Virus record (IMG/VR): IMGVR_UViG_3300025066_000007
Reading direction: 5' to 3' (one strand)
DNA: 64,000 nt
From: a virus
Taxonomy: Duplodnaviria; Caudoviricetes
The notes below the pieces were generated by a model that saw only the letters and a list, made by a program, of their open reading frames with translations, ran no database searches and was not told where the DNA came from. Shown here piece by piece: positions 8,167 through 31,040 of the stretch (position 1 is the stretch's first letter; each line of letters starts with the position of its first letter). Made by a program: the position numbers and the translations under genes.

Positions 8167-8174
8167 ATTAGTAG
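8167..8174 (-). promoter_or_regulatory. CTACTAAT putative late-promoter motif
   Basis: Exact motif immediately after the terminator T-tract and just upstream of the TTG at 8161. Confidence 0.6.
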
Positions 8175-8175
8175 C

Positions 8176-8205
8176 AAAAAGGGCCGGGGATTTTCCCCGG
8201 CCCTT
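8176..8205 (-). terminator. Intrinsic terminator
   Basis: AAGGGCCGGGGA-AAA-TCCCCGGCCCTTTTT hairpin plus T-tract downstream of 8243..9739. Confidence 0.85.
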
Positions 8206-8242: not shown

Positions 8243-9739
8243 TTATACAGATGTCGGAACACAAATAACCATCCAGTCGTCACCATCAAAGTCAGACGCA
8301 GTCTGCTCCCAGATCTTGAGGTCAACATCACTTCCGTTATCAATAAGGCCCCATTCACCATCAGCAGTAGGAGCTACAGACTTCATGTAAGTTCCTTGGT
8401 ACAGAACGCCATTTCTAAACAGCTGAGGACTATCCGCAAGCGGGTGATCTCCAATTAGAACAGATTCGTCTGAAAGAATTGAAGCTCCGGTTCTAACGTT
8501 AGAAGCTGGAGCTCCCAGGTCAGCAGTTAGGCCTCCTGTTACTTGGAGGAAATCAAGTTTTAGGTCGGATACGGCGGCACTGCCGTCGTAGCTTGACATT
8601 GATAGTCCAGAATCCGTAGCATCGCTTAGCGCTCCGAGTGTTCCGCCGAGTGAAACGCCAGAGATTGTGCTGTTAGCAAGCTTTGAATTCGCAATTGCAG
8701 CATCGTTAGCAATACTATCGTCTACAATTTGACCATAAGCAACATCTGTGCCGTCTGACATCAGTACGTAATCAGTGGTACCTAGAGCTAGCTCTTCAGG
8801 CGCGCCAGCGACACCGCCTCGCATAAAGCTTCCTCGGGCTCCAAAGTCTGCTAGCTTCGCAAGAGTAACCTGATTGTCAGCGATACCAGCAGTAGAAACC
8901 TGACCCCATCCGAGATCTGTTCCGTCAGATACTACCATGTAGCCAAGGGTTCCAACGCCTGAATTAGCAGGGTCACCAGAGGCATCACCATAAATGAAGG
9001 TGCCACGAGCGAGTCCGGCCATCTTGGCTAGAGTAACCTGATCATCAGCAATGTGAGCAGTATCAATGGATCCGTCTACATAATGCTCTGAATCAACTGC
9101 GTTATCCGCAAGCTTTGCTCCAGTTACAGCGTCAGCAGCTAATTCCGCAGTTCCAACTCCAAGTGCCTTTAGCTGTAGGGTATCTCCAGAAATTTCAATG
9201 CCCCAAATCCAAGGGTAAGTTTTTTTATACTTTATAATCTTGTCCCTAAATTCACTGCATGATTTTTCAAGTAATTCTTTCTCTGATTTATCAAACTTTG
9301 GGAATTCGATAAATGATCGATAAGCACAATCTACAAGGCCAAAAAAATCAGAAGAGTTAGCCGCCTCAACACAATCCGTATATATAGAAGAAAGTCTTTT
9401 GCGCTCTCTTTCTGATAATCCTGCCGGATACTTATCCGGATGAGATCCATACAAGATATCTTTATAAATTGGCTTCAATCTTTCGCTTAAAAAGCCCTTT
9501 TTGTCATCATGATTAGGCTCTCGCTCTTCGCTTACTTTTGATTCGTCACTACTCTCATGGTCAAGAGTCAATATTTTTTTGGACAAAGATGCATCACCGT
9601 TATTCAGCTTAGAAAGATCTTTCCCAGTTACAGATTGCACTTCTTTGAAAAACGAAATATAATGCTCAAAAAACAAATCCTCTACTTCCTTACATTCGTT
9701 TTTTAAATATTTAGCTTTCAAAAATATGCTTTGGTTCAT
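8243..9739 (-). CDS. Chimeric ORF: J-domain-like (HPD) N-half fused to a tail-fibre/spike-like repeat C-half
   Basis: KPIYKDILYGSHPDK (HPD at 9434..9442). After YPWIW (9203) there is an abrupt switch to GIEISGDTLQLKALGV...GAKLADNAVDSEHYVDGSIDTAHIADDQVTLAK fibre-type repeats. Confidence 0.6.
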   Translation of the reverse strand: MNQSIFLKAKYLKNECKEVEDLFFEHYISFFKEVQSVTGKDLSKLNNGDASLSKKILTLDHESSDESKVSEEREPNHDDKKGFLSERLKPIYKDILYGSHPDKYPAGLSERERKRLSSIYTDCVEAANSSDFFGLVDCAYRSFIEFPKFDKSEKELLEKSCSEFRDKIIKYKKTYPWIWGIEISGDTLQLKALGVGTAELAADAVTGAKLADNAVDSEHYVDGSIDTAHIADDQVTLAKMAGLARGTFIYGDASGDPANSGVGTLGYMVVSDGTDLGWGQVSTAGIADNQVTLAKLADFGARGSFMRGGVAGAPEELALGTTDYVLMSDGTDVAYGQIVDDSIANDAAIANSKLANSTISGVSLGGTLGALSDATDSGLSMSSYDGSAAVSDLKLDFLQVTGGLTADLGAPASNVRTGASILSDESVLIGDHPLADSPQLFRNGVLYQGTYMKSVAPTADGEWGLIDNGSDVDLKIWEQTASDFDGDDWMVICVPTSV

Positions 9740-9960
9740 TATTTTGAATATAGAATCTTCTTTAGCGATCTAATCTTGTTATCGTACTCGCAAAATTCGC
9801 TACTAAAGAAATCTATAGATAACTCTTCGGCTGTCCTCTCCAAATCCTCTAAGATAAACTGAAATCGTCCAGACTCCAGTCTCTTGGCGCTAAGAAGCTT
9901 CAGCCCCTTAAGCGTTAGATATGCGGCCAGAGCTAAGTCTGATGTTTCATAATGCGTCAT
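9739..9960 (-). CDS. Small conserved phage protein (DUF5659-like)
   Basis: YETSDLALAAYLTLKG...GRFQFIL; ATG at 9960 follows AAGGAG. Confidence 0.55.
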   Translation of the reverse strand: MTHYETSDLALAAYLTLKGLKLLSAKRLESGRFQFILEDLERTAEELSIDFFSSEFCEYDNKIRSLKKILYSK

Positions 9961-10004
9961 TATCACTCCTTTTATAAAAGTTAATTAAAAAATAATAGAG
10001 AAAT

Positions 10005-10496
10005 TTATTTGCTATTATTTTGTTTTTTTAAATATTTTCTATGAGAAGAACATAGTGCAGAATTCTTCGGAGCTTGTCGCTTACATCTATTGCCATCTTT
10101 CTTAGTAAATTCACATTGAATGAACTTAAATGGCAAAGCACTTTTTTTGTCATTATCATAGCTATTCTTTGCTGCGGCTAATATTTCTGGAATTATTTCT
10201 TCCATTATAATGGGAGTAAATGTTCTTTCTGTATTCTCATTTTCTTCTGGTTCGACATCTTCAAGCACAATATATGGTTCGGAATTTAACATTTCACTAT
10301 ATTGTTCAGAAGAGGACTTTAGGCCGGCCAAGTCGTCTTCGTAATCGAAAAATGTGTCGAACTTTTCGTTCCCAGGCTCCTCTTCTGCATTGGCGAGTCC
10401 AACTTCTCTTCTTGAAAAAGTTTTCGCTTGAGCACGGTCTTTGAGAGGGGTTGCCTCTATTCTTTTCTGCCTGGATTGAAGTCTCTTTGGAATCAT
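10005..10496 (-). CDS. Hypothetical protein with C-terminal CCCH Zn-finger-like motif
   Basis: QCEFTKKDGNRCKRQAPKNSALCSSH. Confidence 0.6.
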   Translation of the reverse strand: MIPKRLQSRQKRIEATPLKDRAQAKTFSRREVGLANAEEEPGNEKFDTFFDYEDDLAGLKSSSEQYSEMLNSEPYIVLEDVEPEENENTERTFTPIIMEEIIPEILAAAKNSYDNDKKSALPFKFIQCEFTKKDGNRCKRQAPKNSALCSSHRKYLKKQNNSK

Positions 10497-10579
10497 GTCG
10501 GCCCTACTTAATTAACTGTCATTGCTATCTGCTCATAACAAAATAATTAATATATAGACCGATATAAGAGGAAGGTTAA

Positions 10580-12019
10580 TCAGCAGGAAACGCTTCTATA
10601 AACCAAAGAAATTTGGCGCTTAAAATCTTTTTCAGATTTATCATTTTTCATAGAATTGCAAGTAGTGCAGCAGGGCGTGCAGTTGCTTTGGCTATAGGGT
10701 TTTGATGAATCAATTCTGTCGATCCCAACCGTGTTAATTGTGGATCCGCAATAACTGCAGGATTGCTGCCAGAATTCCTCAAACTGGGCTTTCGATAATA
10801 GGAAATCGATATTTCTTTTTTTGGCACCGCTCTTATAGTGAGCAAATTTTCCATCAACAGTACGGTGATAATCGTTCTTTGCATTTCCGGTCTTGAAGAT
10901 TCTCGGCCTTCTATTTTCTGTGATTCCATCTTCGGAGAACTGCTGAATCTTGCAGATATGAGAGAAGAAGGCTTCCGTGGATAAATCATTCTTCATATAG
11001 TTGCAATAGGTGCAACAGGGGACACAATTGTCCATTTCGTAGGATCCGCTTGAGTCGACTCTATCTATTCCAATCGTTTCTATTTCGGAATGGCAGTAAT
11101 TGCAAGGCTTCTGCCAGAAGGATTTGAATTGCTCCTCAGATAAATTGAACTCTATATTGCGAGCCTTAGCCGAAGATCTGTATGCGGAAAATCTACCATT
11201 AAATGTTTGGCCATATTTGCTTCGCCTTTTGATCTCCTTGACCCTAAAGGCTTCGTTACCATGATATTTCTTTTTATTCTTAGCAAGAATTTCTTCTCTG
11301 TTATTCTCAAATCTTACTTTTGATCTCTCTGCAATTAACTCAACGTTTTCAGCATAATAGTTTTTATAGGCACCGCGTTTGCATGGCTTACACTTTGTTT
11401 CATATCCATCACCACGACTTGCATCGCTTGAGAAGGAGCTGATGTCCAGGGTTTTTTTACACTTTGAACAAGTTTTGCTGCTTAAACGTATTATGCCTAC
11501 AGCAATTTTCCCTTGTTTTTTGGCAGCAGCCTTAGCCCTCTTTGCCTTACGGCAATCTCGACAGGAGCCCTCTAGGCCATCTTTCGTTAGTTTTGTTTTT
11601 CCAAAATCACAATATAGCTTTGCTGAATTACACTTTTTGCAAATCTTATGCCCACTCGGAGCAGAAAGATTTCTCCTTGCTGCCTTCTTTGAATTCTTTT
11701 TGTCGTTCAAAGACTTTTGGTATGCATTTCTGCAGTCTTTGCACTTATTTTCAAGACCTCCAACGATATGCTTATTCTTTCCATATTTAGAAAGTGGTTT
11801 TTCTACTTTGCAGCTATAGCAAATTTTATAGCCGTCCCTTGCGGTTGGTTTTGGATTAAGGAGTCTCTCCTTTTCCTTTTTTGCTTTATATGCATCTCTG
11901 TTTTTCTGGTTTCTGCAAATGCTGCAATCACTGCTGAGTCCGTCTTTATTGCTTTTGTTCTTTGGAAATTGATCGATAGTTTTTTCGGTCGTGCAAGTCT
12001 TGCATGTTTTTAGATTCAT
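10580..12019 (-). CDS. Free-standing putative homing endonuclease: four Cys4 Zn-finger repeats plus two tandem HNH-like (His-Me) domains
   Basis: Four CxxC...CxxC repeats (CKTC/CSIC, CYSC/CKDC, CKKC/CRDC, CSKC/CKPC) and two copies of FWQxxCxYC...IGIDRxDSSxxY...NCxPCCxxCNxMKND; AAGGAG RBS. Confidence 0.75.
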   Translation of the reverse strand: MNLKTCKTCTTEKTIDQFPKNKSNKDGLSSDCSICRNQKNRDAYKAKKEKERLLNPKPTARDGYKICYSCKVEKPLSKYGKNKHIVGGLENKCKDCRNAYQKSLNDKKNSKKAARRNLSAPSGHKICKKCNSAKLYCDFGKTKLTKDGLEGSCRDCRKAKRAKAAAKKQGKIAVGIIRLSSKTCSKCKKTLDISSFSSDASRGDGYETKCKPCKRGAYKNYYAENVELIAERSKVRFENNREEILAKNKKKYHGNEAFRVKEIKRRSKYGQTFNGRFSAYRSSAKARNIEFNLSEEQFKSFWQKPCNYCHSEIETIGIDRVDSSGSYEMDNCVPCCTYCNYMKNDLSTEAFFSHICKIQQFSEDGITENRRPRIFKTGNAKNDYHRTVDGKFAHYKSGAKKRNIDFLLSKAQFEEFWQQSCSYCGSTINTVGIDRIDSSKPYSQSNCTPCCTTCNSMKNDKSEKDFKRQISLVYRSVSC

Positions 12020-12231: not shown

Positions 12232-13239
12232 TTACACAGTACCAGTTGCAACGCCTCGGGGGTTAACAATACCGACTCCGATTATTTCATTCACGACCCA
12301 ACCTAATTTCAGCTGCTTCGGCTCATCAGCAGGTAGTACCTCGATGTCCTGACGGACAGGCATTACGCCGACGAACTCAGGATCCGCACAAGCGAATGCA
12401 CGGCCTGAAGGAACAACCTTGGACACAATGATGTCAGCGCCAAAGACGTGGCCGTAAAGACCGGTCTGTAGCAACTCACGCTGGGTGACGGGGTCAACCT
12501 GTGAGTTTGTGTTACCAGCAGATTCCCAGGTGAGAATGTCGGTGAACTCATTGATGTTTAGGAAGTACTTGGAGGTTACCAAGTCCCAGCGGTCAATCTG
12601 GCGCTTGAGGTTGATGAGACCGTCTTTCTCAAGTGAAGTACCAGCGGGGGATAGGTCTACAGCCGCGTTCTCACCACCCTGAGTAGAGTCACCAGCGAAC
12701 TCAAGCGCGGAGAATACGTTAGCATCCTCGTGAGCCTGAATTTCCTGACGAGCCTTCTGCTGGGCACGATCGATCACGTTGAACCGACGACGCTTGACTT
12801 CCGCGATGCGAACGGTCGGGTTTGAGACAACCTCAAACTCGGGAACGTTTACGCGGTCACCGAATACGCGTGACTCAGGAGCTGCACCGTTGCTGGAAAC
12901 AACAACAGCCGCTACATCGATATCACGGTCGTAAACCGGAAGAGCACCCTGGGGAAGCGGATCGACTACGAGAGCCTTACGCGCCACACCCTGATAGTCA
13001 AGGTTGCGACGAATCGGGTTCGCCATCGCTTGACCTAGAGCAATCTTGCCTTCTTGCGTCATTAGAGCCTGCTTGATCATCTCATCTCTCTGACCATCAT
13101 TTAGGCTAGGCGCTGCGGCCTGAGCGTTACTTGACGGCTGAAGATCTTCGATGATTGAAGCATACTTGACGATCTGTGATAGAGCCTCTTGTACGTTAGA
13201 GGCATTGATCTCACCATGTGTGTTAAATAGATTTGTCAT
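12232..13239 (-). CDS. Major capsid protein (HK97 fold)
   Basis: 335 aa with strong AGGAG RBS, visibly biased codon usage, and followed by a terminator. Lies downstream of protease/scaffold and decoration genes. PIRRNLDYQGVARKALVVDPLPQG...PEFEVVSNP...QEIQAHED pattern. Confidence 0.85.
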   Translation of the reverse strand: MTNLFNTHGEINASNVQEALSQIVKYASIIEDLQPSSNAQAAAPSLNDGQRDEMIKQALMTQEGKIALGQAMANPIRRNLDYQGVARKALVVDPLPQGALPVYDRDIDVAAVVVSSNGAAPESRVFGDRVNVPEFEVVSNPTVRIAEVKRRRFNVIDRAQQKARQEIQAHEDANVFSALEFAGDSTQGGENAAVDLSPAGTSLEKDGLINLKRQIDRWDLVTSKYFLNINEFTDILTWESAGNTNSQVDPVTQRELLQTGLYGHVFGADIIVSKVVPSGRAFACADPEFVGVMPVRQDIEVLPADEPKQLKLGWVVNEIIGVGIVNPRGVATGTV

Positions 13240-28190: not shown

Positions 28191-31040
28191 TTAAATTCTC
28201 CTCTTAATATTCGCGATTACAGGCCTTGGATATTCGAGTCTTTTATCTAGCCCAGGCCTCATAGAGAACCCCTTGGTTAGGTCGAATTTATACGCCATAT
28301 AGGCGTATATTAGCGCCATAAATCCATCATTTGGCGAGTTTCCCTTGACGTAAGTCTTTATGGGCTGACCTCCGGATGTCCTTATTTTGGTCTCCATAGA
28401 TGTGCAGTGATCAATGAGCCACTCCATGTGCTCATAGCTCTTCCATGGAAATCTAACCTTTCCCTTTCTAAACAGCTCAATTAATTCGTCAATTAATAAA
28501 TCTTTATTATAAGAAATAATTAGCTCATCCTCTCTATATTTTACTGGTTTGGCCAAGCTTCCACTTCCTTGAGCTCCAAGAAACCTATCTCCGTATACTA
28601 ATTGAAGATCCGAAACAACGTCTTGTCCAAAGAACCAGTCTGATACGCCTCTCGTTACACCAAACCTTCGATACATCTCTTTTATAGTATCTTTTTTAAA
28701 ATCAAATGTATTCTTCTTTAACTTATGGGCGTGTTCTATAGATAAGATCCCATCTGGACTTGCAGACAGAACGACTACACAAGAGAAGGACTGCCCTCCT
28801 CTTGAATTAGGATCGTCATCTTTTCCACCCCAGTCAGAACCAAGATAAACAGTTTTTTCCTTTGAGCTAATAGATTTTGCAAAATATCTATCCGGATCCC
28901 TGCATAAGTTATAAACTTCTGCCTTAGTAAGGGGGGAGCCTGCGCCAGAGTAAAACTCTCCAATAACTTCATTTTTCCAGATTCGCTCTGTTTGGGCAGG
29001 ATTATTTTCCGGCATTAACTTTTCTATATTTTCTTTTGTAAAATATGGAATATAAAGCTGATTGATGTGAAATCCAACGAAGTCGGATTCCTCAAAAGGC
29101 CTTGTTGACACCCACTTTCCAAGTTCTATAGCTTCTATTTTCTTCTGTTTTGTTCCGCAAAGAGGGCATTGAACTATGTTTTCATATAACCAAATTGACT
29201 GCCACCGATTATCATCTGGAAGATAAAAGGGATAAGTCTTCTTGCAATTAATGCACCCAAGATGGTAATAGCGCTGATCTGAAGTTCCCCATATTGTTGC
29301 GAAGTGACTGTTCTTGCTCTTAGGGGTTCCAAAATAAACCTGCACCCCCTGACCAACAGGGCCGTATTTTGCGGCAGTTAAAATCTTTGTTGCATTGCCG
29401 ATTGCATGCGGCAACATCTCTTGGCAATTATGAACGATAGGACCTCCGGTTCCGCTTGAGCCTTTTCTTGACGACAAAATAAAATTGTGATTATCTTCTA
29501 CCTCAATATCGTAAACGACCTCTTTCTTCTCAACGGGAGTTACATTATTGACAATTGTCCATGAGTATTCCTTAAAATCTTGGTTCCAGCTATAAGTTTC
29601 TCCGGCAAATGGCTTTAGCAGCTTATGTGACATAGATGGATGCACATATGGAGAGATTAATTCGGATAAGCTTTTGAATCCGTCCTTGTTAATGAGGACG
29701 TAAAAATAATGTTTATTTCGCTGCTTTGAAAAGTATTTTGAATAGTGACACTTTATTCCCATAGAATTAAGCTTCTTAACGATTCTTTTTTGAGAATCCT
29801 CATCAAATGAAGAGGTGTGCAACGTTCCGGCTGCAGAGCTCTTCCACCTTGCGTTTACAGATCCGTCATCCATAAACCAAATAGCCAGACCTCTCTCATC
29901 TAGCTCGTCTAGCACTTCTTGTGGACAAGTAGACTTTGTCTTTGGGAGATCAAGGTTCATACAAAACATTTTTGAGGAAAATCTTATCGCAGGCTTTTGG
30001 CTAAATCCATTTTTTTCAATTCTAGTTACATTCGCATTAATTATTTTTGACTTCCATTTGCAATACTCTTCCTGGGCCTCTCCGTGATTTACCATAAGTC
30101 TATGGCCTTTGTCACAAGTCCGATCAAGATGGCCATCTCCAAGAAAAGATCCAAGAACTAGCTGCCTCTGATCATCATTTAGAGCTCTGGAGCGCTGAGC
30201 TCCTTCTTTGCGTGATTTGAGCAGATCTCCGGACAAAAGTTCTTCTGCAGGAACCCATCCTCGACTCGTAAGGAATCTGTGGTTTCCAGTGCATTTTATT
30301 CGCCACTTTCCAGCTGTAATTTTAACTAAGCCCTTGGAGCCTCTGTTCCAAGCTTTTTTTATCTTCTTATATTCGAACTTTTCTATAGATTCGTTGAATG
30401 TTCTGGCCATCGGAAGCTCTTCTCCGGCCTCAAATCGCCTAAATAGCTCTCCTATCTTAACCTTTCCATCAGATGTCTCTATATGCTGATCGTAAGGAAA
30501 GCACTCATCGAAAATGCCAACATCAACGGTCATGCCACGAATTCTGTCTCCGTCTGTTCCAAGGCTGTCTATCCAGAGGGTTCCGGTATTAAACTGCTTC
30601 ATCGTAAGGTTGTCGACGGAGTTTGGAGTATTTAGCTTGTTTTTGGTTATGAAGTCATCTTTTGCGGTTCGAATAAGATTCTCTAACTTATCCTGAGAAA
30701 ACTTCTTCACCTGCCCTAAAGCTGGAAATAGGTGAATCACTCGAATATTCGGATCTGTGAACAGACCACTGTTGGTAAAGAACAGGTCAAGTGCTCCGGC
30801 CATCATAGTGGCGCCAACCTGTCGACCTTTCTTTATTACAACCGGCTTCCCATCGGGCCTTGTTGCTTGAAGTGCGATATAACGATAGATATCGGACATG
30901 AATTTCCAGCCGTTATCTAAAACGTTAAATTCAGCTCCATCTAAAGTTAGGTTATTCTTAGTAAAGTGCGCAGGATCGAAATCGAGAAAATTTGATTTTA
31001 ACTGTTCAAATAAATCTTTTTCGCTCTTTTTTGGTGCCAT
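28191..31040 (-). CDS. terL: Terminase large subunit (lambda GpA-like features; contains a LAGLIDADG intein)
   Basis: IKKGRQVGATM (Walker A region), VGIFDE|CQ Walker B, FGTP, Zn motif CINC...CPLC, GFHINQLY, nuclease LGSDWGG. Confidence 0.9.
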   Translation of the reverse strand: MAPKKSEKDLFEQLKSNFLDFDPAHFTKNNLTLDGAEFNVLDNGWKFMSDIYRYIALQATRPDGKPVVIKKGRQVGATMMAGALDLFFTNSGLFTDPNIRVIHLFPALGQVKKFSQDKLENLIRTAKDDFITKNKLNTPNSVDNLTMKQFNTGTLWIDSLGTDGDRIRGMTVDVGIFDECFPYDQHIETSDGKVKIGELFRRFEAGEELPMARTFNESIEKFEYKKIKKAWNRGSKGLVKITAGKWRIKCTGNHRFLTSRGWVPAEELLSGDLLKSRKEGAQRSRALNDDQRQLVLGSFLGDGHLDRTCDKGHRLMVNHGEAQEEYCKWKSKIINANVTRIEKNGFSQKPAIRFSSKMFCMNLDLPKTKSTCPQEVLDELDERGLAIWFMDDGSVNARWKSSAAGTLHTSSFDEDSQKRIVKKLNSMGIKCHYSKYFSKQRNKHYFYVLINKDGFKSLSELISPYVHPSMSHKLLKPFAGETYSWNQDFKEYSWTIVNNVTPVEKKEVVYDIEVEDNHNFILSSRKGSSGTGGPIVHNCQEMLPHAIGNATKILTAAKYGPVGQGVQVYFGTPKSKNSHFATIWGTSDQRYYHLGCINCKKTYPFYLPDDNRWQSIWLYENIVQCPLCGTKQKKIEAIELGKWVSTRPFEESDFVGFHINQLYIPYFTKENIEKLMPENNPAQTERIWKNEVIGEFYSGAGSPLTKAEVYNLCRDPDRYFAKSISSKEKTVYLGSDWGGKDDDPNSRGGQSFSCVVVLSASPDGILSIEHAHKLKKNTFDFKKDTIKEMYRRFGVTRGVSDWFFGQDVVSDLQLVYGDRFLGAQGSGSLAKPVKYREDELIISYNKDLLIDELIELFRKGKVRFPWKSYEHMEWLIDHCTSMETKIRTSGGQPIKTYVKGNSPNDGFMALIYAYMAYKFDLTKGFSMRPGLDKRLEYPRPVIANIKRRI
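29427..30503 (-). mobile_element. Intein with LAGLIDADG homing endonuclease (359 aa) in TerL Walker B
   Basis: CFPYDQ start after DE; CTGNH block B; LVLGSFLGDG and LAIWFMDDG; VYDIEVEDNHNF...IVHN|C end. Confidence 0.9.

Follow-up and report, generated by a model that had tools for sequence, protein, structure and literature searches.

The 498-residue open reading frame (ORF) P0001, which joins a helical N-terminal part bearing an HPD tripeptide (hereafter the N-part) in frame to a C-terminal part of fibre-type repeats, is very probably a real chimeric gene of one phage lineage, formed by an in-frame deletion or an illegitimate recombination event in a hypervariable accessory fibre cassette. 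Relatives of this phage carry the two parts as separate genes that are adjacent or up to ~1.4 kb apart, and P0001 is the only fused protein among 127 clusters of N-part homologues. Both observations support the suggestion in the initial annotation that a natural in-frame deletion had fused two neighbouring genes; a search of related genomes for the same fusion found none.

The window (the whole 64,000-nucleotide stretch of DNA that was analysed) belongs to a 106-kb viral record estimated to be 32% complete. The relatives found through the major capsid protein (MCP) are 220–335 kb in size, which places this uncultured marine phage in a jumbo-phage family. The fusion ORF lies in the head-morphogenesis operon, preceded by genes for the large terminase, the portal, a protease-containing protein and the MCP. 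Across the family this operon reads MCP – p163 – DUF5659 – hypervariable cassette – p155 – p107 – p302, and some members have in this cassette an accessory J-domain gene of ~200 aa and, after it, a fibre gene that is separate and highly variable.

The fusion gene and its junction

The N-part comprises, in order, a long N-terminal helix, an acidic disordered linker (aa ~56–88), the J core, a C-terminal helix and a TYPWIW motif. The stop codon of the DUF5659 gene and the ATG of the fusion overlap by one base (TAATG), which suggests that translation of the fusion may be coupled to that gene; the same overlap is present on the contig that encodes the homologue P0121, there with a standalone J gene. 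A predicted terminator hairpin would close a p163-DUF5659-fusion transcription unit. Positions of these and other features are collected in Table 1.

Table 1. Features of the fusion locus and of related loci (window positions unless a locus is named).
Feature	Position	Strand	Description or basis
Fusion ORF (P0001)	8243–9739	-	498 aa; helical N-part and fibre-type repeat C-part
N-part, aa 1–179	9203–9739	-	P0121 similarity, HPD invariance, profile match, AF2 model
Codons for H100-P101-D102, J-domain signature	9434–9442	-	Only invariant columns of alignment A2
Fusion junction, aa 180–182 (G-I-E)	9194–9202	-	Assignable to either parent
Fibre part, aa 183–498 and stop codon	8243–9193	-	PHROG, tblastn, P0088 and internal-repeat matches
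Modules of the fibre part			Shaft, aa ~187–298; two ~56-aa repeats, aa 232–350; C-terminal domain common to P0088
DUF5659 gene upstream of fusion	9739–9966	-	Pfam PF18903
Terminator-like hairpin	8179–8205	-	12-bp GC-rich stem and T run; 38 nt past fusion stop
Motif CTACTAAT	8167–8174	-	Immediately past the terminator
HNH/EndoVII endonuclease gene	10580–12019	-	479 aa; between MCP and p163
MCP gene	12232–13239		phrog_2522, E 1e-73
Large terminase gene (TerL)	28191–31040	-	949 aa
Closest relative, 5743-bp contig			Partial 151-aa ORF – DUF5659 (73 aa) – P0121 (202) – 129 – 130 – 61 – P0088 (464) – 153 – 107 – p302
Split-MCP loci	L073:1451–3640, L074:8591–10780, L075:280–2469, L078:8601–10741, L085:7491–10504		MCP gene matched in pieces
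Distant J-family members	L087:202–897, L088:1921–2616, L089:3423–4259, L091:3633–4418, L093:2739–3464		Replication/repair modules
Second, partial DUF5659-like stretch	L027:9177–9621, L029:11435–11886		Follows a DUF5659 gene

The junction reads YPWIW/GIEISGD at nucleotides 9203/9202, where it had initially been placed, and GC content rises downstream of it, from 0.29–0.39 over positions 9200–9740 to 0.46–0.53 over 8300–9200. By codon position (first/second/third), GC is 0.40/0.31/0.31 in the N-part (aa 1–179) and 0.64/0.48/0.35 in the C-part. Since GC3 is nearly equal in the two halves and the jump is confined to codon positions 1 and 2, the GC step is an effect of amino-acid composition: a helical domain rich in K, E, I and F is joined to a fibre rich in G, A, D and V, and synonymous codon usage is unchanged. 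The abrupt switch described in the initial annotation is therefore correct for amino-acid composition and GC content but not for codon style. The similar GC3 values also mean that neither half looks recently imported, and a foreign origin of the fibre half, considered from its GC content, was ruled out on the same grounds.

At the position of the junction P0121 reads WGLE and continues into its own tail (DDSKKQ...), the J parent in general reading WG[LI]E; the fibre homologues read [GT]IE[IV]SGD, which opens a repeat unit. On these alignments the junction can be placed within a stretch of three residues (aa 180–182).

At least 23 contigs, several of them longer than 200 kb, encode the identical protein; they were drawn from JGI assemblies and from Logan assemblies of separate SRA runs, although some of these 23 JGI/SRA records may share samples, so that truly independent samples number fewer than 23. 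The 5.77 kb around the fusion are 100% identical in five contigs, and the 113-kb contig of a second strain (L002) differs at 57 sites over 10.5 kb (99.4% identity) and carries an identical fusion gene. The fusion is thus seen in several libraries and in at least two genotypes. An assembly or sequencing artefact, whether a chimeric contig, a lost stop codon or a frameshift, might be suspected from the abrupt GC change at the junction and from the metagenomic origin of all of the data; it is nonetheless extremely improbable, given the recurrence of the gene, flanks that are collinear with those of relatives on both sides, and a GC3 that is continuous over the junction. The J tail and the three intervening ORFs of the closest relative are moreover missing, which argues against a simple stop-codon loss. 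The mis-assembly that the initial annotation had allowed for can accordingly be set aside.

The C-part matches phrog_13518 (E 1e-20) and phrog_892 (E 2e-12), in line with the fibre-type repeats noted initially; the matches named 'tail fiber protein' are phrog_892, phrog_28766 and phrog_21412 (E 2e-12 to 1.5e-5). By tblastn, the C-part matches cyanopodovirus and pelagiphage proteins over aa 187–298, including the 'tail fiber-like protein' of S-TIP37, and this shaft module is common to thousands of metagenomic proteins, one of which (P0009) has PF03906 (the T7 tail-fibre N-terminal domain) and another (P0072) a Peptidase_S74 chaperone. The duplication of ~56 aa that had been noted initially aligns residues 232–292 with 288–350 at 46% identity (E 2e-16). 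The fibre part as a whole (aa 184–498) aligns with residues 160–464 of P0088 at 46% identity, reaching the last residue; P0088 has its own N-domain of 160 aa. A Pfam search of P0001 detected neither PF03906 nor another virion-anchor domain, as expected from the earlier reading of a fibre half that has no virion-attachment N-terminus. PF13884 (S74) was not found in P0001 or in aa 350–498, even at E≤10, and an ESM Atlas search with the C-terminal domain (aa 350–498) returned only unnamed viral clusters with scores below 0.9.

The fibre part might also, or mainly, be produced from an internal start past the junction, the fusion frame then being incidental. The first in-frame ATG past the junction is M240, and it could provide such a start. 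This is very unlikely, given that no ATG is present at aa 180–239, that no promoter-like site lies on the gene's strand within the ORF, that a product starting at M240 would have no shaft module, and that the N-terminal fibre segment of relatives is missing here anyway.

Several further features were observed in the window and in its relatives. The loop of the terminator hairpin (SNPs at 8191–8193) reads, in gene orientation, AAA in the window but TTT in L002, the strain of 99.4% identity, a flip that is the sole difference between them across 5.77 kb. The motif CTACTAAT lies 6 nt ahead of the TTG start codon of p155. Were this motif to act as a promoter element, p155 would be transcribed with almost no leader, unless its translation truly begins further downstream, at the site that gives the 148-aa product called in the JGI records. 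We also considered the AT-rich stretch from 9203 to 12019 as a single mobile insertion and rejected this, p163 and DUF5659 being conserved in nearly all relatives. Only the gene for a 479-aa multi-zinc-finger HNH/EndoVII endonuclease within that stretch is sporadic; it occupies the same position in L062–L066 at 35–38% identity and is absent from most relatives, a distribution that fits a free-standing homing endonuclease. In the large terminase, a LAGLIDADG homing-endonuclease PHROG matches aa 289–474, ahead of the terminase match (aa 540–918), and an intein is likely at this position. The MCP gene of several relatives matches in two to three pieces ~1.0–1.2 kb apart, which suggests that introns or inteins (homing elements) may lie within it. 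The relatives L027 and L029 each carry an additional, partial DUF5659-like stretch after their DUF5659 gene.

The N-part and its family

The N-part (aa 1–182) aligns without gaps to the standalone, 202-residue P0121 at 59% identity. An HPD tripeptide by itself could be a chance occurrence. In an alignment (A2) of 50 homologues of the N-part, however, H100, P101 and D102 are the only invariant columns. When the A2 profile was compared with the PDB, 58 of 60 matches were J-domain proteins (best, DNAJB8, E 5.8e-8), and the alignment spans helix II, the HPD and helix III (K..Y+.[IL] and, 3–4 positions on, HPDK). Together, this invariance and the profile match indicate that the HPD is not there by chance. 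PF00226 (DnaJ) is matched by five of eight close homologues (best E 1e-5); P0001 alone does not match it even at E≤10, and phmmer with the N-part against the PDB gave chance-level matches only (E≥0.03). The initial description of the protein as J-domain-like thus holds at the level of the family, and not for the single sequence against Pfam.

An AF2 model of the N-part built on A2 (mean pLDDT 85, pTM 0.75) is all-helical over aa 1–184, as had been anticipated for this HPD-containing region. The HPD (residues 100–102) sits in a loop between a helix at 89–99 and one at 110–128, followed by a further helix at 132–141, and a long N-terminal helix and C-terminal helices flank this J core. Helices II–IV are modelled, and a distinct helix I was not identified. 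The model obtained from the single sequence (aa 1–200) was poor (pLDDT 52). Foldseek with the N-part model against the PDB gave no match at E≤0.001, a method that is uninformative for short helical domains, as is VIA-align, which for aa 83–144 gave generic three-helix bundles (Z 7.6), with no J-domain among the matches listed. From the conservation and profile evidence we conclude that the N-part contains a divergent but genuine J-domain core, and we infer that it would be a working J-domain that engages host DnaK via the HPD.

An exhaustive HMMER search, clustered at 50% identity, placed this J family at 127 homologue clusters, all of them proteins predicted from metagenomes. The 126 clusters other than P0001 are standalone proteins of 62–278 aa (typically ~200 aa). 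The members carry no precomputed Pfam annotation, and the family is, judging by its profile, a widespread and unannotated set of divergent kin of phage J-domain proteins.

An HSP70 gene was not found in five relatives, three of which are 94–100% complete, and any J-domain activity in this phage family must therefore rely on host DnaK. Each relative with the J gene has one copy of it, and two complete relatives carry fibres but lack it, which marks the gene as accessory. Wherever a standalone J gene occurs in this lineage (seven loci and the P0121 contig), it lies just upstream of a fibre gene, and this fixed place might point to a part in fibre assembly. Four distant members of the family, taken as a random sample, lie instead in replication/repair modules and not beside fibres; neighbours of distant members include a 5'-3' exonuclease, DnaB, RecA, gp32, Fapy glycosylase, Pol III alpha and thymidylate synthase. 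The J family overall is thus not tied to fibres. One of these distant loci (L093) additionally encodes a canonical full-length DnaJ.

The separate-gene state and the origin of the fusion

In seven IMG/VR relatives the homologue of the N-part is a standalone ORF of 191–213 aa that ends ~20 aa past TYPW[VI]W. The same loci encode a separate fibre-like ORF of 515–814 aa, which follows it directly in four loci and is set off from it by one or two small ORFs in the other three. The closest relative, a 5743-bp contig of JGI sample 3300072015, holds the best homologues of both halves of the fusion (59% and 46% identity) as separate genes in the same order. Both flanks of its J/fibre cassette match the gene order of the window, the partial ORF at its start being in the position of p163 and the 153-aa ORF being the p155 homologue, after which come homologues of p107 and p302. 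What the fusion lacks by comparison with this contig is the C-terminal tail of the J protein (DDSKKQQKILQDYLSSKKGK in P0121), all three intervening small ORFs, and ~160 aa at the start of the fibre. The residue at which the fibre motif starts varies (~16 in L028, ~72 in L009 and ~155 in P0088), and since the cassette fibres are so heterogeneous the extent of the lost fibre N-terminus is uncertain. A tblastn search of the 106-kb record (~32% of the genome) for the J tail, the N-domain of P0088 and the intervening ORFs of relatives found none of them. No relative was returned by a search of viral contigs with the whole fusion, and a metagenome scan with P0121 gave no match.

We believe that a single event is the most economical explanation, with no adaptive role required. 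A deletion or illegitimate recombination would have taken out the final ~20 codons of the J gene, whatever separated the two genes (in the closest relative three small ORFs, in four other relatives nothing) and the 5' portion of the fibre gene, which encodes the N-terminal and presumably virion-attaching segment. The crossover would have fallen within G-[IL]-E, a short stretch that both parents share, with the reading frame kept, and would have yielded a J-domain attached to a fibre fragment that has no anchor. With identities of just 59% and 46% to the two halves in the closest unfused relative, the event could also have been a recombinational replacement rather than a simple deletion. The phage would tolerate the fusion because both parent genes are accessory, and the fusion itself is probably neutral. 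No sequence divergence exists within the fusion gene among its carriers, so that selection on it is not measurable; the fusion appears to have been caught soon after it arose, with the parental two-gene state still visible in relatives.

The fusion could instead be an evolved design, in which the J part recruits host DnaK in cis so that its own fibre part folds or assembles, or the helical N-part serves as a new virion anchor. The ORF is intact, the J part keeps all of its family-conserved residues, conservation of the fibre part extends through its final residue, and two strains carry the fusion with neither half decayed, as expected of a useful gene; the constant position of the standalone J gene just upstream of the fibre gene points the same way. 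We nevertheless consider such a design unlikely. The architecture is unique in its family, distant members lie beside DnaB, RecA, Pol III alpha and glycosylases and not beside fibres, two complete relatives keep fibres but have no J gene, and the zero divergence within the fusion leaves selection beyond assessment. The self-chaperoning fibre offered in the initial annotation was disfavoured on the first two of these points. A related proposal, to which we attach only a slim chance, is that the standalone ~200-aa J proteins of this lineage might be dedicated co-chaperones that enlist host DnaK to fold or assemble the product of the adjacent fibre gene, of which the fusion would be a single-chain, cis version; if so, they would represent a new type of fibre-assembly helper.

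Comparison with known systems

To our knowledge very few phage J-domain proteins have been studied, Rki of phage RB43 being the characterised one. Relative to canonical J-domains (PF00226; DNAJB8, 2dmx; E. coli DnaJ, 1xbl), the N-part shares the succession of helix II, HPD, helix III and helix IV, but its J core is internal (aa ~85–145) rather than N-terminal and has no clear helix I; unlike canonical J proteins, the N-part also has no G/F region, zinc finger or DnaJ_C domain. The J family would be novel as a set of unannotated, divergent phage J-domain proteins, and the fusion as a new architectural variant of it that is probably accidental. In phages that have no Hsp70 of their own, the family likely marks a dependence on host DnaK.

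As described by Perrody et al. (2012; PMC3486835), Rki (gene 057w of the T4-related phage RB43) is expressed early and, rather than serving as a general co-chaperone, stabilises sigma32 through its action on DnaK. Compared by that description, Rki and the present J family are both small, accessory, phage-encoded proteins with an HPD J-domain, in phages without Hsp70, and both engage host DnaK (an activity that we infer for the J family). In contrast to the early Rki, the gene described here lies in a late head/fibre operon, is probably coupled to DUF5659 and is fused to a fibre in this lineage. Its architecture (a long N-terminal helix, an acidic linker, a central J core and a C-terminal TYPWxW region) also differs from that described for Rki. 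DnaJ and DnaK are reported from another lineage of large phages (Moraphage; PMC12619734), to which no link from the present J family was established.

The fibre half finds its closest counterparts in marine T7-like cyanophage and pelagiphage fibres (P-SSP3, P-GSP1, NATL2A-133 and HTVC106P), which have the shaft (aa ~187–298) in common with P0001 at 44–52% identity by tblastn and, like it, contain DUF5907-like repeats. Metagenomic proteins match the shaft module at up to ~70% identity, some of them with a PF03906 N-terminal domain. The marine fibres begin with a virion-attachment domain (PF03906 in P0009), whereas P0001 does not, and its C-terminal domain is different. The fusion shows how hypervariable fibre cassettes produce chimeric ORFs. 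Among known fibres, a built-in folding helper is provided by the Peptidase_S74 (endosialidase-type) chaperone, which is C-terminal, autoproteolytic and independent of Hsp70. Such a domain is present in the shaft homologue P0072 but not in P0001. The fusion offers a natural construct for asking whether a tethered J-domain alters the folding of a fibre.
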